This document shows positions 1 to 15,980 of a stretch of DNA of 35,640 bases, piece by piece. Position 1 is the stretch's first letter; the number at the start of each line of letters is the position of its first letter. The translations under genes were made by a program, and so were the position numbers. The stretch is from a virus (taxonomy: Duplodnaviria; Heunggongvirae; Uroviricota; Caudoviricetes). The DNA is taken from IMG/VR virus record IMGVR_UViG_2684623059_000001; one strand, 5' to 3'. The notes beneath the pieces are model-generated. The model did no database searches. It saw only the letters and a program-made list of their open reading frames with translations, and was not told the origin of the DNA.

Positions 1-1074
1 TCATTTGTTGATTTCAATTTTGTCCCATTCTCTCCCTCGGCTGTCCCTATACCGCGCCGCCATTGAATCTGATTTATGCCCGAGAAGACGTTGAGCAAAC
101 TTATCGCCAATCTGATTCCGGTATAGCCTCGCCGACAGGCTACGCAGTTCATGGAATGTTGGCGGGTCTCCATCAAATGAGAGTCCAGATGCATTTCTCG
201 CCTTTGTAAAATACTTAGATACTGTTTTCGGGGAAAGCGGTTCGTGATGCGTTGATGCAATTATTGTTTCACTGCCGCTGGCCTCCCTGCATTTCTGTAG
301 TGTATCAGCCAATGAAATATTGAGCGCGTCAATCGTTAGCGTCAGCGGAATGGCGAGCTTAGCCCCTGTTTTACCCTGTTCAATGTGAAGATGGTTGTCG
401 TTTATGTCTGACCATTTCATTTTGCACAAATCGCCGACTCTCTGACCTGTAACGACGGCCAAATCCATCGCAAGCCTCAGCCAGATTGGGAGAGGTTCGG
501 CTGCATGGTGAATTGCGACATACTCATTAGCTGTCAGCCTTGAGCGCCTTACTTCTGACTTTGCTGTGCGGGTTGCTGTTACCGGATTCGTAGCCACATG
601 CCCCTCGGCTATTGCCTCACGAAAAACGTCAACAAGGGTTGACCTGATTAATTTTGCGGAAGCCGCTTTACCTTCTGCTACGTAGGTGTTTAGCATTGCT
701 GCCACCTCTTTCGTTGATATGTCTGCGAGCGGTTTGTCCGGCAATTTTCTTCGGATTGCCCTGATTTTGCTGGCGTAGTCGAGTAGAGTTTTCGGCCTGA
801 TACCCCTCTCGCTGAGGATTGTTTCATATCGGTCAAGCCACGCATGAAGAGTGATTGCGTCAGCGCCTTTAATTCTGTCTATCAGTGACTCACGCCTGTT
901 CCCGGATAGCAACTCAATATTGGCCTGTATAGCTTCAGTGATTGCTATACGTCTGTCTCGGCCTAATCCGAACTCTTTACCCGTCCTTGGGTCCCTGTAG
1001 CAGTAATATCCATTGTTTCTTATATAAAGATTAGGGGGTAAATCCCGGCGCTCATGACTTCGCCTTCTTCCCAT
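1..1074 (-). CDS. int: Phage integrase, tyrosine recombinase, lambda Int type
   Basis: 357-aa translation starts MGRRRSHERRDLPPNLYIRNNGYYCYRDPRTGKEFGLGRDRR and ends ...RGREWDKIEINK, collinear with lambda Int as I remember it; overlaps xis as in lambda. Confidence 0.95.
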   Translation of the reverse strand: MGRRRSHERRDLPPNLYIRNNGYYCYRDPRTGKEFGLGRDRRIAITEAIQANIELLSGNRRESLIDRIKGADAITLHAWLDRYETILSERGIRPKTLLDYASKIRAIRRKLPDKPLADISTKEVAAMLNTYVAEGKAASAKLIRSTLVDVFREAIAEGHVATNPVTATRTAKSEVRRSRLTANEYVAIHHAAEPLPIWLRLAMDLAVVTGQRVGDLCKMKWSDINDNHLHIEQGKTGAKLAIPLTLTIDALNISLADTLQKCREASGSETIIASTHHEPLSPKTVSKYFTKARNASGLSFDGDPPTFHELRSLSARLYRNQIGDKFAQRLLGHKSDSMAARYRDSRGREWDKIEINK

Positions 1075-1270
1075 TTCTGATCCTCTTCAAAAGGCTACCT
1101 GTTACTGGTCGATTTAAGTCAACCTTTACCGCTGATTCGTGGAACAGATACTCTCTTCCATCCTTAACCGGAGGAGGGAATATCCTGCACTCGCGTACCC
1201 ATCGACGAACTGTTTCAAGGCTTCTTGGGCGTCGCTGGCGTGCGTTCCACTCCTGAAGTGTCAAGTACAT
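1052..1270 (-). CDS. xis: Excisionase
   Basis: 72-aa translation MYLTLQEWNARQRRPRSLETVRRWVRECRIFPPPVKDGREYLFHES... matches lambda Xis almost residue for residue (from memory); 3' end overlaps int start. Confidence 0.93.
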   Translation of the reverse strand: MYLTLQEWNARQRRPRSLETVRRWVRECRIFPPPVKDGREYLFHESAVKVDLNRPVTGSLLKRIRNGKKAKS

Positions 1271-1375
1271 CGCAAAGTCTCCGCAATTACACGCAAGAAA
1301 AGCCGCATTGATGCGGCAATGGTAGGTCTGGATATCTTGAGAAATGAACAGGCCTCATCGAGTGTGAGGCTGTGG

Positions 1376-1720
1376 TTAGTCCTTGCGTAACTCACTAATT
1401 CTTCTGTAAGTCTCTGGTGCTTTGTTTCCGTGTATCTTCATTTCAGACTTCAACAGAGCAACGAGGGAATCCCATTCGTTGAGGATGCCTTTGAATGCCG
1501 GAACGCGCTTTGCAACCTTGTCGAATGAATCTCTGATTTCTGGAATCTGCTCAACAAGTGCAACGCATCGCCGGAAGTCTGCTGCGTCATGTGGAGCGCC
1601 GAAGTGATGACCATAGATATTCTTTTTCAGTCCACATGCGATTGAGGCAAGAGTTGCGCTACTAATGCCAACATCGCCAGTCGATTGCCATTTCAAAACC
1701 TTCATAGCCAAATCTGACAT
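1376..1720 (-). CDS. Hypothetical phage early-region protein (114 aa), function unknown
   Basis: Intact ORF co-oriented with xis and int immediately upstream of xis; I do not recognise a family. Confidence 0.55.
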   Translation of the reverse strand: MSDLAMKVLKWQSTGDVGISSATLASIACGLKKNIYGHHFGAPHDAADFRRCVALVEQIPEIRDSFDKVAKRVPAFKGILNEWDSLVALLKSEMKIHGNKAPETYRRISELRKD

Positions 1721-1820
1721 TTCTTGTCTCCATAAAACAAAACCCGCCGTAGCGAGTTCAGATAAAAGAAATCCCCGCGAGTGCGAGGATTGTTATTCAC
1801 CTTTAACGGCAAGTTGCAGG

Positions 1821-2057
1821 TTAGCCACGGTTTACCTCCTGCGGCGGTTCCGGTAGCGGCATCCAGTGAGTTGCTTGCTCAATACCATTACCCGGCTTAA
1901 TCGTTGCATCTCCGCGCCGAAAGGTGCTTCCGGTATAGCGTGCGGAGCATATTAGCGGTTCAACCAGAGAGCTATCGAAATTCACCGAAATAAGCACGTT
2001 CTGGCCCTTTTCAGGCATTCGCTCACTACAGCTTATCCAACCATCCGGAGTTACCGG
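1821..2057 (-). pseudogene. 3' fragment of an unidentified early-left-operon gene, truncated by the IS911 junction
   Basis: The minus-strand frame of ORF 1821..2018 stays open upstream (PVTPDGWISCSER before the listed Met) right up to the IS911 end at 2058, so the listed Met is probably internal. Confidence 0.45.
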
Positions 2058-2129
2058 TGAAGTGGCACACTGAATTTGGCCACCTGAACAGAGGTGATAT
2101 GCTCACCTCAGAACAACACAGGTGCTCCA

Positions 2130-3298
<1,169 letters not shown>

Positions 3299-3306
3299 CC
3301 ACTTCA

Positions 3307-3396
3307 ATGCTGGAAGTTCACGTGTGTGAGCACTGCTGCGCAGAGCTGATGAGCGATTCGAATAGCTCGATGCACGAGGAAGAAGATGATGGCTAA
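3307..3396 (+). pseudogene. ninF: ninF 3' remnant (last ~29 codons) abutting the IS911 right end
   Basis: Frame reads (M)[28 protein letters not shown] then stop, matching the lambda NinF C-terminus as I remember it; the NinF N-terminus is not present left of the IS. Confidence 0.7.
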
Positions 3397-4009
3397 ACCA
3401 GCGCGAAGACGATGTAAAAACGATGAATGTCGGGAATGGTTTCACCCTGCATTCGCTAATCAGTGGTGGTGCTCTCCAGAGTGTGGAACCAAGATAGCAC
3501 TCGAACGACGAAGCAAAGAACGCGAAAAAGCGGAAAAGGCAGAAAAGGCAGCAGAGAAGAAACGACGACGAGAGGAGCAGAAACAGAAAGATAAACTTAA
3601 GATTCAAAAACTCGCCTTAAAGCCCCGCAGTTACTGGATTAAACAAGCCCAACAAGCCGTAAACGCCTTCATCAGAGAAAGAGACCGCGACTTACCATGT
3701 ATCTCATGCGGAACGCTCACGTCTGCTCAGTGGGATGCCGGACATTACCGGACAACTGCTGCGGCACCTCAACTCCGATTTGATGAACGCAATATTCACA
3801 AGCAATGCGTGGTGTGCAACCAGCACAAAAGCGGAAATCTCGTTCCGTATCGAGTCGAACTGATTAACCGCATCGGGCAGGAAGCAGTAGACGAAATCGA
3901 ATCAAACCATAGCCGCCATCGCTGGACTGTCGAAGAGTGCAAGGCGATCAAGGCAGAGTACCAACAGAAACTCAAAGACCTGCGAAATAGCAGAAGTGAG
4001 GCCGCATGA
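3386..4009 (+). CDS. ninG: NinG (Rap) recombination-associated protein
   Basis: Translation [36 protein letters not shown]...CISCGT...[11 protein letters not shown] is lambda NinG-like; the start may be the second ATG at 3389. Confidence 0.9.
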
Positions 4010-4212: not shown

Positions 4213-4855
4213 TGGCAGCAAATACCGAAATATTTGGGTAGCTGGCGACCTGCACGGATGCTACACGAACCTGATGAACAAACTGGATACGATTGGATTC
4301 GATAACAAAAAAGACCTGCTTATCTCGGTGGGCGATTTGGTTGATCGCGGTACAGAGAACGTTGAATGTCTGGAATTAATCACATTCCCCTGGTTCAGAG
4401 TTGTACGTGGAAACCATGAGCAAATGATGATTGATGGCTTATCAGAGCGTGGAAACGTCAATCACTGGCTGCTTAATGGCGGTGGCTGGTTCTTTAATCT
4501 CGATTACGACAAAGAAATTCTGGCTAAAGCTCTTGCCCATAAAGCAGAAGAACTTCCGTTAATCATCGAACTGGTGAGCAAAGGTAAAAAATATGTCATC
4601 TGCCACGCCGATTATCCTTGTGACGAATACGAATTTGGAAAGCCAGTTGATCATCAGCAGGTAATCTGGAACCGCGAACGAATCAGCAACTCACAAGACG
4701 GGATCGTGAAAGAAATTAAAGGCGCGGACACGTTCATCTTTGGTCATACGCCAGCAGTGAAACCACTCAAGTTTGCCAACCAGATGTATATCGATACTGG
4801 CGCAGTGTTCTGCGGAAACCTCACATTGATTCAGGTACAGGGAGAAGGCGCATGA
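4190..4855 (+). CDS. ninI: Lambda-type serine/threonine protein phosphatase (NinI)
   Basis: Metallophosphatase motifs GDLHG, GDLVDRG and GNHE in the translation; ATG at 4190 gives the 221-aa lambda length, the listed ORF start at 4115 overlaps ninH. Confidence 0.88.
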
Positions 4856-5475
4856 GACTCGAAAGCGTAGCTAAATTTCATTCGCCAAAAAGCCCGATGA
4901 TGAGCGACTCACCACGGGCTACGGCTTCTGACTCTCTTTCCGGTACTGATGTGATGGCTGCTATGGGGATGGCGCAATCACAAGCCGGATTCGGAATGGC
5001 TGCATTCTGCGGTAAGCACGAACTCAGCCAGAAAGACAAACAAAAGGCCATCAACTATCTGATGCAATTTGCACACAAGGTATCGGGGAAATACCGTGGT
5101 GTGGCAAAGCTTGAAGGAAATACTAAGGCAAAGGTGCTGCAAGTGCTCGCAACATTCGCTTATGCGGATTATTGCCGTAGTGCCGCGACGCCGGGCGCAA
5201 GATGCAGAGATTGCCACGGTACAGGCCGTGCGGTTGATATAGCCAAAACAGAGCAGTGGGGGAGAGTTGTCGAGAAAGAGTGCGGAAGATGCAAAGGCAT
5301 CGGCTATTCAAGGATGCCAGCAAGCGCCGCATATCGCGCTGTGACGATGCTAATCCCAAACCTTACCCAACCCACCTGGTCACGCACTGTTAAGCCGCTG
5401 TATGACGCTCTGGTGGTGCAATGCCACAAGGAAGAGTCAATTGCAGACAACATTTTGAATACGGTCACACGTTAG
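4852..5475 (+). CDS. Q: Late-gene antiterminator Q (lambda type)
   Basis: 207-aa translation [33 protein letters not shown]...[12 protein letters not shown]...CGRCKGIGY matches lambda Q with its zinc-binding cysteines; start overlaps ninI stop. Confidence 0.93.
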
Positions 5476-5546: not shown

Positions 5547-5754
5547 TGACGCCAACAATGGGTGTTTTTTGCCTGCCATTGATGAATCTCAATAACCTGC
5601 CACCGAGTAGTTTTTATGCCCTGAATTGTATTTGTGTAGTAAACATGCTGACTGCAATGTAATAGAGTTTTTTTAGCCTGTAACCTCTTGACGGCATTGA
5701 ATTGCTTTTGTTATGAGTTGTAAGCCAATGTTATCATCTTGTATTGGGGTGGTT

Positions 5755-6471
5755 ATGAAGGATGGTGCGCTGCTCAGGAGTTCTTCACTTTTTATTGCCT
5801 ATATGGGATGCCTTGGATGGGGGAGTGCTTATTTCTATGGATGGGGTACTTCTTTTTACTACGGCTTCCCATGGTGGATTGTAGGTGCAGGTGTTGATGA
5901 TGTTGCCAGAAGTTTATTTTTTGCAGTTATCGTCATTGCTATATTTCTTATCGGTTGGGGTATTGGTGTTGTATTCTTTTTCGCAGTGAAAAGAAAACAT
6001 TCTATGCAAGAGCTAAATGTATTTCGCCTTTATTTTGCTGTGGAATTATTGTTTGTGCCGGCAATTATTGAGTTTTCTATATTGAGACAGAAGATTCAGG
6101 TACCTCTTTTGCTACTGTCAGCAGCGATTGCGCTGGCGGTTACAATTTCGATAAGATCTTATGGGCGATTTTTATCGGTATCATGCTTCTATGATAAGCC
6201 ATTTATAAAAAAACATTTTTTTGAGATTGTGATGATTGCTTTTGTGGCATATTTCTGGCTTTTTTCATTTCTGACAGGATATTACAAACCACAGTTTAAG
6301 AAAGAATATGAAATGATTAATTATAATGATGGTTGGTATTATGTTCTTGCTCGTTATGATAATTGTCTGGTTTTGTCTACTTCTTTCAATGCAGGTAGTA
6401 AAAGGTTTGTCATTTATCAATCAGCACAAGATAAGAATCTTCAGGTTGATATTGTAAGGACCAGAATTTAA
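5755..6471 (+). CDS. Hypothetical polytopic inner-membrane protein (about 238 aa), AT-rich insert downstream of Q
   Basis: Long open frame in visibly AT-rich DNA; about five hydrophobic segments (for example FFAVIVIAIFLIGWGIGVVFFFAV) then a ~60-aa hydrophilic C-terminal domain. ATG at 5755 is preceded by ggggtgg; an alternative ATG at 5713 is listed. Confidence 0.6.
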   Translation: MKDGALLRSSSLFIAYMGCLGWGSAYFYGWGTSFYYGFPWWIVGAGVDDVARSLFFAVIVIAIFLIGWGIGVVFFFAVKRKHSMQELNVFRLYFAVELLFVPAIIEFSILRQKIQVPLLLLSAAIALAVTISIRSYGRFLSVSCFYDKPFIKKHFFEIVMIAFVAYFWLFSFLTGYYKPQFKKEYEMINYNDGWYYVLARYDNCLVLSTSFNAGSKRFVIYQSAQDKNLQVDIVRTRI

Positions 6472-6957: not shown

Positions 6958-7049
6958 CGGCCTGCTATTGGCAGATGTTCATCCTGTGATTTTCTTCTGT
7001 TCCTGCTCCGGCCTTTCCCTACTTTATTCCTGTGCATGAGAGAAATTTG

Positions 7050-8903
7050 ATGTCGATTAAACGTTATGATTTGGTCAGGGCTGCCTCGCCGTCAGATCTG
7101 GCGGAAAAACTGACACAAAAGCTGAAAGAGGGCTGGCAGCCATACGGCGGACCGGTTGCCATTACGCCGTACACACTGATGCAGGCGGTGGCTATTGAAG
7201 GAGATCCACAGGTCGGCCCTTCATCTGAGCCGGACTGGTTCTACGTGGTTGTGCTTGCCGGACAGTCCAACGGCATGGCCTACGGTGAAGGGCTTCCGTT
7301 GCCGGATTCTTACGATGCTCCGGATCCGCGCATTAAACAGCTGGCGCGCCGCAGCACGGTAACTCCGGGTGGAGAGAGTTGTACGTATAACGACATCATC
7401 CCGGCTGACCACTGTCTGCATGATGTGCAGGATATGAGTACGCTGAATCATCCGAGGGCTGACCTAAGCAAAGGTCAGTATGGCTGTGTGGGGCAGGGAC
7501 TTCATATTGCCAAAAAACTGCTCCCGTATATCCCGAATAATGCGGGGATCCTGCTGGTACCATGCTGTCGTGGTGGTTCGGCATTTACCCTGGGCGCGGA
7601 GGGGACATTCAGTGCGGACACGGGGGCCAGCCAGGATTCGGCGCGCTGGGGTGTGGGTAAACCGTTATATCAGGACCTGATTGTGCGCACCAAAGCTGCA
7701 TTACAGAAGAACCAGAAAAATGTGTTGCTGGCGGTGTGCTGGATGCAGGGAGAGTTTGACATGAGCGCCGCCACCTACGCACAGCAACCTGCGCTGTTTA
7801 CAGCCATGCTGAAGCAGTTTCGTGCTGACCTCACTGTGTTTAACGCGCAGTGTCATGGTGGCAGTGCTGTAAATGTGCCGTGGATTTGTGGTGACACGAC
7901 GTATTACTGGAAAAACACCTACGGCACGCAGTACAACACCATTTACGGGGCGTACAAAAACAGGGAGAGTGAGGGCGTTTATTTTGTGCCGTTCATGACA
8001 GACGGTAACGGCGTCAATACCGCCACTAATGCGCCGGCAGAAGATCCAGATATTCCGGCATCAGGATATTACGGTGCGGCATCGAGAACGAATGGAAACC
8101 AGGTATCATCAAACCGCCCGACACATTTTAGTTCATGGGCGCGCAGGAGCATTATTTCGGATCGCCTGGCAACCGCTATTCTGAACGCAGCCGGGCGCAC
8201 CTCAGCCTTCATCAGTGGTAAGGCACCGGAAATCAACCCCTCGCCCGGCGGCGATACGCCATCGGGGCCGTCTGATAGCGAAACATCCGTCCGCACAGTC
8301 TCCCTGCTGCCGGCAGACGGAGAGGCTGCTACGCAGGGCTGGACTATTAAAGATGGCGGAATTCAGCTGGCAGATGGTGTATTTAAGATCACCAAGCAGA
8401 GCAATAAAACCTGGTCCCTGGCGCATCCGGTGGATGACGCAATTACCCTGCTGACACAGGGCGGCAGGCTGACTTGTAAGTTCCGCCTGTCTGGAGCTCT
8501 GACTAATAATCAGTTCGGGCTGGGGATTTATCTGTATACGGACGCTCCCGTTCCTGATGGTGTGGCGATGACGGGTACCGGTAATCCGTTCCTGATGTCG
8601 TACTTCACTCAGACCACTGACGGTAGACTGAATCTGATGCATCACAGGAAAGCAGGAAACACGAAGCTGGGGGAATTTGGGGGCTACAGTAACGACTGGC
8701 AGACGCTGGAGCTGGTGTTCACCGCCGGCAGTGCCACGGTTACTCCGAAACTGAATGGAGTGGCTGGCCCGGCATTCCAGGTTATAAAAGACAGTCTGAC
8801 TCTGGGACTGAATGCGCTGACGCTGACGGATGTTACAAAAAATGCAGCGTATGGCGTTGAGATAGAAAGTCTGATGCTGGAGATAAATGCACCGGCATCA
8901 TAA
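7050..8903 (+). CDS. nanS-p: Prophage sialate O-acetylesterase (NanS-p type, N-terminal DUF1737 plus SGNH/SASA esterase domain)
   Basis: N-terminus MSIKRYDLVRA... and a GQSN motif near the start of the esterase domain; position after Q and before the lysis genes matches 933W-type phages. ATG at 7050 preferred over the GTG at 7032. Confidence 0.78.
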   Translation: MSIKRYDLVRAASPSDLAEKLTQKLKEGWQPYGGPVAITPYTLMQAVAIEGDPQVGPSSEPDWFYVVVLAGQSNGMAYGEGLPLPDSYDAPDPRIKQLARRSTVTPGGESCTYNDIIPADHCLHDVQDMSTLNHPRADLSKGQYGCVGQGLHIAKKLLPYIPNNAGILLVPCCRGGSAFTLGAEGTFSADTGASQDSARWGVGKPLYQDLIVRTKAALQKNQKNVLLAVCWMQGEFDMSAATYAQQPALFTAMLKQFRADLTVFNAQCHGGSAVNVPWICGDTTYYWKNTYGTQYNTIYGAYKNRESEGVYFVPFMTDGNGVNTATNAPAEDPDIPASGYYGAASRTNGNQVSSNRPTHFSSWARRSIISDRLATAILNAAGRTSAFISGKAPEINPSPGGDTPSGPSDSETSVRTVSLLPADGEAATQGWTIKDGGIQLADGVFKITKQSNKTWSLAHPVDDAITLLTQGGRLTCKFRLSGALTNNQFGLGIYLYTDAPVPDGVAMTGTGNPFLMSYFTQTTDGRLNLMHHRKAGNTKLGEFGGYSNDWQTLELVFTAGSATVTPKLNGVAGPAFQVIKDSLTLGLNALTLTDVTKNAAYGVEIESLMLEINAPAS

Positions 8904-9124: not shown

Positions 9125-9340
9125 ATGTACCAGATGGAAAAAATCACAACAGGTGTGTCATACACCACGTCAGCGGTGGGGACGGGATACTGGTTACTGC
9201 AGCTGCTGGACAAAGTCTCTCCATCCCAGTGGGTGGCGATAGGTGTGCTAGGGAGCTTGGTTTTTGGCCTGCTGACGTACCTGACAAACCTTTATTTCAA
9301 GATAAAAGAAGACAAGCGTAAGGCTGCGAGAGGTGAATAA
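9125..9340 (+). CDS. S: Holin, phage 21 S-type pinholin with dual-start motif
   Basis: 71-aa translation [45 protein letters not shown]...KRKAARGE resembles the S21 pinholin; two Met codons three residues apart suggest holin/antiholin starts. The listed ORF start at 9017 is an extension. Confidence 0.9.
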
Positions 9341-9837
9341 TGCCTCCATCATTACGAAAAGCTGTTGCAGCTGCTATTGGTGGCGGGGCTATTGCTATAG
9401 CATCTGTGTTAATTACTGGCCCAAGTGGTAACGATGGTCTGGAAGGTGTCAGCTACATACCATACAAAGATATTGTTGGTGTATGGACTGTATGTCACGG
9501 ACACACCGGAAAAGACATCATACTAGGTAAAACGTATACCGAAGTAGAATGCAAAGCCCTCCTGAATAAAGACCTTGCCACGGTCGCCAGACAAATTAAC
9601 CCGTACATCGAAGTCGATATACCGGAAACAACGCGCGGCGCTCTTTATTCGTTCGTTTACAACGTGGGCGCAGGCAATTTCAGAACATCGACTTTTCTTC
9701 GCAAAATAAACCAGGGTGATATCAAAGGCGCATGTGATCAGCTACGGCGTTGGACATACGCTGGCGGTAAGCAATGGAAAGGGCTGATGACTCGCCGCGA
9801 GATTGAGCGTGAAGTCTGTTTGTGGGGACAACAATGA
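9340..9837 (+). CDS. R: SAR endolysin (signal-anchor-release lysozyme, phage 21 R type)
   Basis: N-terminal hydrophobic Gly/Ala-rich SAR segment [20 protein letters not shown] followed by a T4-lysozyme-like domain; start overlaps the holin stop. Confidence 0.9.
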
Positions 9838-10298
9838 GCAGGGTAACCGCGATTATCTCCGCTCTGGTTATCTGCATCATCGTCTGCCTGTCATGGGCGG
9901 TTAACCATTACCGTGATAACGCCATGACCTACAAAGCCCAGCGCGACAAAAATGCCAGAGAACTGAAGCTGGCGAACGCGGCAATTACTGACATGCAGAT
10001 GCGTCAGCGTGATGTTGCTGCGCTCGATGCAAAATACACGAAGGAGTTAGCTGATGCGAAAGCTGAAAATGATGTTCTGCGTAATGATGTTGCCGTTGGT
10101 CGTCGTCGGTTGCACATCAAAGCAGTCTGTCAGTCAGTGCGTGAAGCCACCACCGCCTCCGGCGTGGATAATGCAGCCTCCCCCCGACTGGCAGACACCG
10201 CTGAACGGGATTATTTCATCCTCAGAGAACGGCTGATGACAATGCAGAAGCAACTGGAAGGAGCACAGGAATATATCCGTACCCAGTGTATACCGTGA
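9834..10298 (+). CDS. Rz: Inner-membrane spanin Rz
   Basis: Translation from [29 protein letters not shown]... is lambda Rz-like; listed ORF start at 9822. Confidence 0.9.
10054..10236 (+). CDS. Rz1: Outer-membrane lipoprotein spanin Rz1, embedded in the +1 frame of Rz
   Basis: 60 aa with lipobox LVVVGC and proline-rich tract [16 protein letters not shown]; located entirely inside Rz. Confidence 0.85.
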
Positions 10299-10761
10299 TG
10301 TTTTGTTATGAAGGTGTTACTGGTAACGTTAAGGTAATTTAACAAAAAGTCAGTTCCGGACTTTATAGTGTGCTCAGATCATGGCCAAAAACGATTTCTG
10401 TGATAAATATTTTGAATATTATTTACAGATAAATGAAGTGGGCGCATGGATGGAAATTTACAATAGAGTATGAAGTATATGTCCGTATTGTATGGGCAGA
10501 GAAGGCAAAAACACGGTAATTCCTTGTGTTGCCATGATACCTGATTGGCAGAATAGTTGTTTGGTTTTGAGTATATAGTCAGCGTTTTTTGTTCAGTAAT
10601 AGCTCTCTCAAAAAATAATAAAATAAGGTGATTATTTGGGTTTATTATTTAGTTTTTTTTGTGTGTTGCTTTGTTGTTTCTCTGTGATTTATTTTTTATT
10701 GTTATTTCATTAAAGGAAGGTAAATTCAGGATAGCAGTCTGTAGATAATCGGAGGTCACTT

Positions 10762-11076
10762 ATGCTACATGATCACCTGGCAGAATGTCTGGAGAAAAAA
10801 GGACTGTACCGGAGAGCAGCTGAACGATGGGCAAAAGTGATGGTACAGCTAAGTGATGACCAGAAAAGAAAAGTGGCGGCACAGAAACGAGCAGAGTGTT
10901 TGCGTAAGGCGCGCCGGACTCCGGTTTCACCGGTGAACCTGACAGAAATAAAACAAGCGGTCAACAGACTACATTCTGAGTTGGGAATGGGATTTGAAGA
11001 GCGGCGGGTATTCCGACGATATAAAGGGACAGGAGAACAGAATACGTCCGGAAACGCGCGGTCAAAAAAATGCTAA
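10762..11076 (+). CDS. Putative PerC-family (Pch-like) transcriptional regulator
   Basis: 104-aa basic protein MLHDHLAECLEKKGLYRRAAERWAKVMVQ...; the LE-KGL-RRAA-RW motif is what I recall for PerC/Pch regulators of the LEE. ggagg ribosome-binding site 8 nt upstream; preceded by ~460 bp of AT-rich non-coding DNA. Confidence 0.5.
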   Translation: MLHDHLAECLEKKGLYRRAAERWAKVMVQLSDDQKRKVAAQKRAECLRKARRTPVSPVNLTEIKQAVNRLHSELGMGFEERRVFRRYKGTGEQNTSGNARSKKC

Positions 11077-11112
11077 AAAATATCTGAGAGAGTTATTGCC
11101 TGTTACCATAAT

Positions 11113-11139
11113 AAAAAGCGACTTTAGTGGTCGCTTTTG
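11113..11139. terminator. Bidirectional rho-independent terminator between the convergent PerC-like and ylcI-like genes
   Basis: aaaaagcgac / tttagtg / gtcgcttttg: 6-bp stem flanked by an A-run on one side and a T-run on the other. Confidence 0.45.
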
Positions 11140-11156
11140 TGTCATATATAAGTCGT

Positions 11157-11381
11157 TTAAGTAAACCTGTCTGAACAGGTGCTCTGGTCGTGTTTGTCTT
11201 TGTTGGGTAAAAATTGAGAATATTTTTCATTAATTAATCTTCTTCTGCAGGCTTCAATAACCCACGCTGAAAAATTTTCTGAACCTTTCAGATCAAGAGC
11301 GATGTTAATTTGTTCAATCATCTGGTTTGGAAATCGGATGTTGCGGGTTGTTGTTCTGCGGGTTCTGTTCTTTGATGACAT
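11157..11381 (-). CDS. ylcI: YlcI-like small protein (DUF3950 family)
   Basis: 74-aa translation MSSKNRTRRTTTRNIRFPNQMIEQINIALDLKGSENFSAWVIEACRRRL... matches my memory of DLP12 YlcI, which likewise sits just upstream of the terminase small subunit gene. Confidence 0.6.
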   Translation of the reverse strand: MSSKNRTRRTTTRNIRFPNQMIEQINIALDLKGSENFSAWVIEACRRRLINEKYSQFLPNKDKHDQSTCSDRFT

Positions 11382-11578
11382 AATGTTGCCCCCATATTCA
11401 GTGTTGCTGATTTGTATTATCTGAAGTTGCTTTTACGTTAATTTGATGCAGATCAATTAATACGATACCTGCGTCATAATTGATTATTTGACGTGGTTTG
11501 ATGGCGTACACGCACGTTGTGACATGTAGATGATAATTATTATTTTGTGGGTCCTTTCCGGCGATCCGACAGGTTACG

Positions 11579-11590
11579 GGGCGGCGACCT
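11579..11590 (+). other. cosN cohesive-end site, lambda type
   Basis: gcgatccgacaggttacg followed by gggcggcgacct cgcgggttttcg reproduces the lambda right-end/left-end junction and the 12-nt cohesive end; the predicted Nu1 start lies about 190 bp downstream as in lambda. Confidence 0.8.
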
Positions 11591-12267
11591 CGCGGGTTTT
11601 CGTTATTTATGAGTTTTTTTGAGGTGGTGGTTGTTGTTTTATCGTTTGATATATCTACTTGATAAGTAATAAGAAAGAAAAACAAACACAACAACCTGAT
11701 GAGCTTTCTTATACGAAAAAGCATGTAAAATCAGAGGGTTTTACAAAAAGCGGGGTTGTTGTATTGCTTTTTTGCCGGTGGTTTATGGAGGAGCTGTGGC
11801 CTTTTTATTGAATAAAAGCGACATGGCCTCCTCCATCGGTATCTCAGTACAGGCATTTGATAAATGGGGTGTCCCTCCTGTTGAGCGCCGGGGGAGAGAG
11901 GTTTTCTATGACGTTAAAACTGTACTGGAGATAGATCGCGAGCGACGTCAGCAAAACCAGAAATCTTCAGATGGTGAAAATAACCTTGAGGAAAGGCTAC
12001 TTCAGGCCAGGGTTAATCTGACGGAAGAACAGGCTATTGCTCAGCGGTTAAAAAACCAGGTTGCAGAGCATAAAGTGATTGATACCGCTTTCTCTGTTTT
12101 TGCACTGTCCCGGTTATCCGGAGAACTGGCATCTGTTCTGGACAGTATTCCGCTTTCGATGCAAAGAAAATTCCCTGAGTTGACAGGCAGACAATTGGCT
12201 TATCTGAAAGAGCTTGTTGCGAAGGGAGCTAATAAATGCGTTGAATCTGCTGAAAAAATGAAGGAAT

Positions 12268-15980
<3,713 letters not shown>

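Follow-up and report, generated by a model that had tools for sequence, protein, structure and literature searches.

A reading frame for a small basic protein, preceded by several hundred base pairs of very AT-rich DNA, lies between the lysis genes and the cos site of a lambdoid prophage and raises the question of whether it encodes a virulence regulator of the PerC/Pch type, as a preliminary description had proposed, and of how this locus relates to the pch genes known from enterohemorrhagic Escherichia coli (EHEC). The analysis covered a stretch of 35,640 nucleotides, hereafter the window, and the features that it contains at and around the locus are compiled in Table 1. With high confidence the locus can be regarded as a standard group-1 pch cassette, i.e., a PerC-family regulator gene (PchB allele) in the moron slot between Rz/Rz1 and cos; the earlier reading as a PerC/Pch-like virulence regulator is supported.

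Table 1. Features of the pch locus and effector genes of the same prophage (positions in the window)
Feature	Position	Strand	Evidence or remark
Phage endolysin gene (R)	9340..9837	+	PF00959 Phage_lysozyme, E=5e-44
Rz spanin (i-spanin) gene, last gene of the lysis cassette	9822..10298	+	PF03245 Phage_lysis, E=8e-53
Rz1 lipoprotein (o-spanin) gene, embedded in Rz in another frame	10054..10236	+	PF06085, E=3.8e-20
AT-rich pch upstream region	10299..10761	+	463 bp, GC 0.324; conserved distal block 10299-10599, variable promoter-proximal block 10600-10720
Imperfect palindrome TCTGTGATAAATATT-ttg-AATATTATTTACAGA	10397..10429		inverted repeat I6 with 15-nt arms (80 % complementary) around a 3-nt spacer
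Shine-Dalgarno sequence GGAGG of pch	10751..10755	+	read from sequence; 6 nt from ATG
pch (PerC-family, group 1 Pch transcriptional activator)	10762..11076	+	104 aa, ATG start; PF06069 and PchA/B/C identity
Anti-SD AGCUAAGUGAUGACC within the pch coding sequence and overlapping DicF-complementary seed ACCAGAAA (10859-10866)	10847..10866	+	MFE and centroid folds
Hairpin AAAAGCGAC-N7-GTCGCTTTT separating pch from the convergent ylcI-like gene	11114..11138		inverted repeat I12, 9-nt arms, 100 % complementary
YlcI/YnfO-family (DUF3950) gene, 74 aa	11157..11381	-	PF13132, E=7.9e-18; NF041551, E=1.5e-8
Lambda-type cosN core GGGCGGCGACCT	11579..11590	+	exact match, one occurrence in the window
Terminase small subunit gene (Nu1)	11772..12302	+	PF07471 Phage_Nu1, E=5e-21
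NleG-family type III effector gene	32974..33621	+	PF06416, E=4.4e-38; annotated matches
nleA type III effector gene, 441 aa, right end of the prophage	34315..35640	-	99.5 % identity to regions that carry the annotation 'type III secretion system effector NleA'

Identity of the gene product

The extent of the reading frame and the basic character of its product (25 K+R versus 12 D+E residues, pI 10.3) agree exactly with the preliminary description. Assignment to the PerC family, previously proposed from an N-terminal motif, is decisively borne out by the profile search proposed at the time, since PF06069 (PerC) matches with E=5.4e-44 and 148.8 bits over profile positions 1-89 of 90, the curated gathering cut-off of this family being 22.6 bits. 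The motif itself (LEKKGLYRRAAERW) proved to be the family signature in an alignment of 45 diverse relatives, in which R17, A19, A20 and W23 are invariant and A7, L10, E11, G14, R18, R22 and C46 are conserved in at least 90 % of the sequences. The protein displays the complete PerC-family core, i.e., A-E-x-L-E-x-x-G-L-Y-R-R-A-A-x-R-W followed by a cysteine about 23 residues further on, within a basic protein of the usual size (about 90-105 aa).

Alignment to the Pch proteins of E. coli O157:H7 Sakai, likewise suggested beforehand, allows a more precise placement. The protein is 100 % identical to PchB (ECs_2182) and shares 103 of 104 residues each with PchA (sole change L6V in PchA) and PchC (sole change V58M in PchC), both L6 and V58 being present in PchB. 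At the nucleotide level, 314 of the 315 positions of the coding sequence agree with pchB. The exact protein corresponds to WP_001302717.1 of the O157:H- strain 493/89, and an exact-sequence look-up found it on at least 1000 contigs under the names 'PerC family' or 'PchABC family transcriptional regulator'. The next-closest clusters retrieved are 77-79 % identical and the most distant family members retrieved 26-44 %. Near-identity to PchA/B/C therefore identifies the protein as a group-1 Pch, and the length of 104 aa likewise conforms to this group as opposed to the PchD and PchE groups. PerC of enteropathogenic E. coli (EPEC; pEAF perABC), the founder of PF06069, belongs to the same family and carries the N-terminal motif, a likeness drawn here from family membership. 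EPEC PerC, like Pch, activates the LEE1 promoter (PMC4456613, PMC4764244). It differs, however, in being plasmid-borne in an operon with perA and perB and conditionally dispensable for LEE expression, whereas Pch is a monocistronic prophage cargo required in EHEC (PMC4764244).

An AlphaFold model based on 45 diverse family members has a mean pLDDT of 85, with values above 90 for residues 1-50. Helices are modelled for residues 5-13, 16-29, 33-50 and 60-73, complemented by a four-residue helix (80-83) and a basic tail of low confidence. The predicted fold is a small, all-helical TPR/MIT-like hairpin devoid of a helix-turn-helix, which would fit a counter-silencer better than a classical activator. 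Residues 7-47 also show a sub-threshold resemblance (E=0.046, 13.6 bits versus a 32-bit cut-off) to the NCBIfam model of ANR (AraC negative regulator, Aar-like; NF033650). Pch and ANR are both small, helical, H-NS-linked virulence regulators, and the match is perhaps due to chance. Furthermore, a search of a library of 1.84 billion proteins yielded two proteins with several separate matches each to about residues 21-80 of Pch (P0046, 7614 aa, seven matches; P0081, 768 aa, five matches), suggesting either tandem repetition of PerC-like helical units in such proteins or a coiled-coil/low-complexity artefact.

Position between the lysis genes and cos

Rz/Rz1 are followed by the AT-rich region, pch, its putative terminator, the convergent YlcI/YnfO-like gene, cosN and Nu1, with the gene for the large terminase subunit downstream of the latter. 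Lysis genes and cos had been named as flanks before, together with the occupation of this position by bor in lambda, and Pfam matches, the exact cosN core and the detection of PF06291 in lambda agree with this: bor directly follows Rz there (lambda 46462-46752, minus strand). The convergent YlcI/YnfO-like gene between pch and cos was missing from the preliminary description. YlcI/YnfO-family genes are common cos-proximal genes of lambdoid phages. The hairpin separating it from pch is retained in pchA and in strain 493/89 and likely serves as a bidirectional intrinsic terminator.

From 10299 to about 11246 the window shares no megablast-level similarity with lambda-type phages; similarity resumes at 11247, corresponding to lambda 48169. 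The pch cassette thus behaves like a typical 'moron', an accessory cassette occupying the place of bor. Extra DNA of deviant composition, by which morons are recognized, is indeed found here, given the absence of lambda homology and a GC content of 0.32 versus 0.52 for the window. Lambda bor and other lambdoid morons share with pch the slot after Rz, the deviant base composition and probably a terminator of their own, and both represent lysogen-expressed cargo affecting host virulence. However, bor encodes an outer-membrane lipoprotein on the opposite strand, whereas pch encodes a cytoplasmic regulator on the strand of the late operon.

The same arrangement recurs in Sakai, where all group-1 pch genes follow Rz/Rz1 after the same AT-rich region of about 465 bp, and the 3' end of Rz in the window is 99 % identical to the Rz genes preceding pchA, pchB and pchC. 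Prophage Sp11, carrying pchB, displays the identical order of Rz, AT-rich region, pch, YlcI-like gene, cos and Nu1, and also has nleG genes at its end like the prophage in the window. PchC (ECs_2737, Sp14) and PchA (ECs_1091, Sp4) are encoded in the same post-Rz slot. In Sp11 and Sp14, terminase genes follow pch, and the YlcI-like gene and the cos region are present by alignment; Sp14 contains espJ/tccP instead of nleA/nleG. In Sp4, by contrast, IS629 truncates the homology just 3' of pch and cuts the cassette off from cos, the block of lysis genes and pch having the opposite orientation to the packaging genes. Strain 493/89 has the same gene order as the window. By comparison with these relatives, a position between Rz and cos is the normal one for pch genes, and the locus is no special insertion.

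The AT-rich upstream region

The preliminary description had noted about 460 bp of very AT-rich DNA between Rz/Rz1 and the regulator gene. Its GC content, set against 0.521 for the whole window, makes it the lowest-GC stretch of its length, only 0.1 % of all 463-bp windows being as AT-rich, and the reported homopolymer runs are present as well (T8, T6 twice, A6, A5 three times). Its base composition suggests that the region may be silenced by H-NS. Matches to the high-affinity H-NS motif TCGATAAATT with at most two mismatches numbered 21 in the window versus 27 expected, one of them in the upstream region (10336-10345). The 463 bp probably represent regulatory DNA of pch, while their status as a transcribed 5'-UTR 'leader' is putative. 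In a search for sigma-70 promoter hexamers upstream of pch, three (e.g., at 10529-10557) were found versus 4.1 expected from shuffles, so that no transcription start was placed. Likewise, a terminator consensus scan gave counts not above shuffled expectation, with nothing convincing inside the 463-bp stretch. Rfam models run over 9800-12000 at permissive thresholds returned a single chance-level match to a eukaryotic lncRNA and no known RNA family in the upstream region. The sole reading frame of at least 30 codons (10381-10473, 30 aa) is not regarded as coding, its frame being broken by 1-nt indels in pchA, pchB and pchC.

Over the entire region the window is 97.6 % identical to pchC, 97.8 % to strain 493/89, 94.6 % to pchA and 87.6 % to pchB, pchC thus being the closest of the Sakai upstream regions (88-98 % identical). 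The divergence from pchB is concentrated in the block 10600-10720 (67 % identical), whereas identity remains at 93-100 % in the 300 bp of the distal part and around the translation-initiation region. Given a protein identical to PchB and a promoter-proximal block so unlike that of pchB, the window therefore holds a PchB protein behind a proximal block of the pchC/pchA type. The palindrome in the distal part is near-invariant among the window, pchA, pchB, pchC and strain 493/89, a single position alternating between A and G (10429, where the right arm ends), and is a candidate binding site (operator) of a regulator.

A predicted cis-inhibitory fold of the pch mRNA

For pchA, the work of Melson & Kendall (2019), as related in PMC7769764, PMC9438474 and PMC7873438, describes an anti-SD sequence inside the coding sequence that sequesters the Shine-Dalgarno (SD) sequence, and pairing of the small RNA DicF with this anti-SD under low oxygen, which permits translation. 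Folding of the pch mRNA of the window from -60 to +150 predicts the same feature: in both the MFE and the centroid structure, the SD/AUG segment 10751-10766 pairs with 10847-10861, with predicted pair probabilities of 0.6-0.78 overall and about 0.77 for GGAGG. The identical SD:anti-SD fold is predicted for pchB and pchC, while the MFE structure of pchA uses a neighbouring AAGUGG repeat; such alternative anti-SD pairings account for 17 % of the ensemble in the window. The pch mRNA of the window thus appears to retain the cis-inhibitory feature published for pchA, the prediction agreeing with the reviews. The folded segment as a whole possesses no extra stability relative to shuffled sequences (z = -0.38). 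The motif AAGUGAU/AAGUGGC occurs three times in the coding sequence (10834-10843, 10850-10859 and 10870-10879; direct repeat D2 and anti-SD), each copy being complementary to GUCACUU of the translation-initiation region.

Complementarity to DicF was assessed with dicF of E. coli K-12. The 5' end of this RNA (UUUCUGGU) is exactly complementary to positions 10859-10866, forming an 8-nt seed, and the duplex energy of full-length DicF was not significant versus shuffled targets, about 10 % of which scored equally well. An Rfam scan at gathering threshold did not find dicF in the 35.6-kb window, so that DicF would have to act in trans from elsewhere in the genome; nor was dicF detected at gathering score next to dicB in Sakai Sp14.

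The prophage and its distribution

The prophage is organized in the order integrase, IS3-family transposase, ninG, Q, lysis, packaging, head and tail genes, followed by nleG and nleA. Co-occurrence of nleA and an nleG-like gene with the regulator had been pointed out before and holds. No repressor, cro or replication genes (immunity/replication region) are present in the prophage, the relevant part being the interval 1-3400. The early region of the prophage has therefore been lost, and the element is probably defective, making its earlier designation as such a reasonable one. An IS3-family element with an rve integrase core (PF00665) occupies positions 2094-3298 (+) between the integrase/excisionase end and ninG.

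Several further features were observed in the late region. The sole Rfam match at gathering threshold in the whole window is STnc100 (RF02076; 6727-6960, +), recognized over the full model length with 95.8 bits (gathering score 47, E=9.5e-20). It is located between the gene for the antiterminator Q (4852-5475) and a DUF1737/SASA esterase gene, i.e., in the leader region of the late promoter, where Stx phages have tRNAs and stx. The esterase gene (7032-8903, +) encodes a 623-aa protein composed of DUF1737, SASA (sialate O-acetylesterase-like) and DUF6645 domains, a NanS-p-type esterase typical of Stx-phage-like late regions. Just 3' of Q, a 252-aa reading frame (5713-6471, +) without Pfam match corresponds to PHROGs of unknown function only (phrog_1521, E=2e-154). 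It lies in the part of the window that ranks second in AT content (GC at most 0.36, windows starting at 5846-6314) and looks like a further accessory gene in a classical moron slot.

Of 5426 complete E. coli genomes, 673 (about 12 %) contain the 1.1-kb pch cassette at a coverage of at least 80 %. Among the phage genomes of INPHARED, no record comprises the whole cassette, the only matches being two short fragments from an EDL933-derived phage. Homologues in GTDB species representatives are confined to E. albertii (91 %) and Escherichia sp. (77 %). The homologue of E. albertii NBRC 107761 (L002 3930-4334) shares 91 % protein identity and has a deletion of five residues; as it has just about 70 bp of upstream sequence in common with the window, its context is other than the Rz-pch-cos slot. 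None of the complete RefSeq E. coli genomes contains the whole prophage, the best match having a coverage of 76 % and an identity of 95 %. For the pch cassette the closest sequences are those of O157:H-/O55:H7 strains (98.4 %), and the nleG-nleA end is 99.5 % identical to chicken E. coli isolates with the same effector genes; by these sequence affinities the element is a recombinant mosaic. Its host was likely LEE-positive, considering the presence of both nleA and nleG in the same prophage.

Weighing of alternative explanations

A match to PF06069 as such cannot separate the Pch groups, and of the five pch paralogues of EHEC only those of group 1 activate ler (PMC6265319). The gene could accordingly be a non-LEE-activating paralogue of group 2 (PchD) or group 3 (PchE, repressing csgD/curli and flagella) with a role in control of biofilm formation or motility. 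This option has next to no probability, being effectively refuted by the 100 % identity to PchB and 99 % to PchA and PchC, and the protein length, slot and upstream region are also those of group 1, the nearest other clusters being far more distant. Somewhat less remote, yet still very improbable, is that pch is a silent passenger that persists by hitch-hiking on a decaying prophage, either in a host devoid of the LEE or at a fully silenced locus. Loss of the prophage early region to an IS3-family element, an upstream region AT-rich enough to make silencing plausible and a 35.6-kb prophage window in which the LEE is not visible are compatible with this scenario. However, the locus preserves an intact reading frame, SD sequence, putative terminator and upstream region, each almost identical to its counterpart in functional copies, and the same prophage maintains intact nleA and nleG genes, useful only in conjunction with a type III secretion system, at an end that most closely resembles chicken E. 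coli isolates possessing the same effector genes.

We assign an equally slight probability to the presence of a separate element, i.e., a gene for a small RNA or a small protein, hidden in the 463-bp stretch beyond the regulatory DNA of pch. Late regions of EHEC prophages do harbour multicopy sRNAs such as HnrS (PMC13502914), and both the better conservation of the distal 300 bp among the paralogues compared to the proximal block and the near-invariant palindrome would be in line with such an element. The prophages from which HnrS was reported are, however, Sp9, Sp10 and Sp12 (PMC13502914), whereas pch resides in Sp4, Sp11 and Sp14, and neither an Rfam family, even at permissive thresholds, nor a convincing internal terminator was found in the stretch, the one reading frame of sufficient length being frame-broken in the paralogues. 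Two further readings, concerning regulation and mode of action, carry more weight and are nevertheless unlikely when taken jointly. The locus may be a natural chimera with the PchB protein behind a proximal block of the pchC/pchA type, and this block (10600-10720, about 120 bp), shuffled among prophages by recombination, may determine the published differential regulation of PchA versus PchB by LrhA. In addition, the confidently modelled helical hairpin without helix-turn-helix implies that Pch may act mainly via protein contacts, and PerC/Pch proteins may accordingly contact H-NS/Hha/StpA or RNA polymerase rather than bind DNA sequence-specifically.

Proposed function and significance

Returning to the preferred reading as a standard group-1 pch cassette, the locus is intact with respect to reading frame, a good SD sequence, the downstream hairpin and the conserved AT-rich upstream region. 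[quoted passage not shown] Activation of the LEE1 promoter by PchA takes place only if this promoter is repressed by H-NS and its paralogues; PchA reduces and remodels the binding of H-NS/StpA at LEE1 and, together with Ler, has the same effect at non-LEE effector loci such as nleA and the nleG clusters (PMC4764244). Known inputs to pch comprise LrhA, Lrp/LeuO with butyrate, NtrC/sigma-S, Fur and SOS (PMC4456613, PMC13012123, PMC10714755, PMC4090186, PMC6265319). By analogy, transcription from the upstream region would be set by the host regulators LrhA, Lrp/LeuO with butyrate and NtrC/sigma-S, and prophage induction (SOS) would also raise pch expression owing to the position of the gene at the late-operon end. 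Pairing of the SD/AUG segment with the anti-SD of the coding sequence would hold back translation until, under low oxygen, it is released by DicF acting in trans. The protein would then associate with AT-rich regions occupied by H-NS, among them the LEE1 promoter and the nleA and nleG loci, and loosen the H-NS/StpA/Hha nucleoprotein complex, leading to de-repression of ler and to expression of the LEE and of non-LEE effectors. Activation of LEE1/ler, experimentally established for the Sakai proteins (PMC6265319, PMC4456613, PMC4764244), would be expected in the present host from the sequence identity to them. The coupling of regulator and effectors envisaged in the preliminary description has backing in the literature, since both Pch and Ler bind to the nleA and nleG regions of Sakai, where they lower H-NS occupancy (PMC4764244).

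Protein, slot, upstream region, putative terminator, predicted mRNA lock and co-carriage of effectors are all already known from the description of pchA, pchB and pchC of O157:H7, and the discovery value of the locus is accordingly nil. Its sole local peculiarity, as far as the sequence comparison indicates, is the mosaic of a PchB coding sequence and a pchC-type proximal upstream block. Recognition of pch nevertheless annotates the prophage as carrying virulence-regulatory cargo beside nleA and nleG, the group-1 pch genes of prophages encoding small proteins that activate the LEE, the type III secretion island of EHEC/EPEC.
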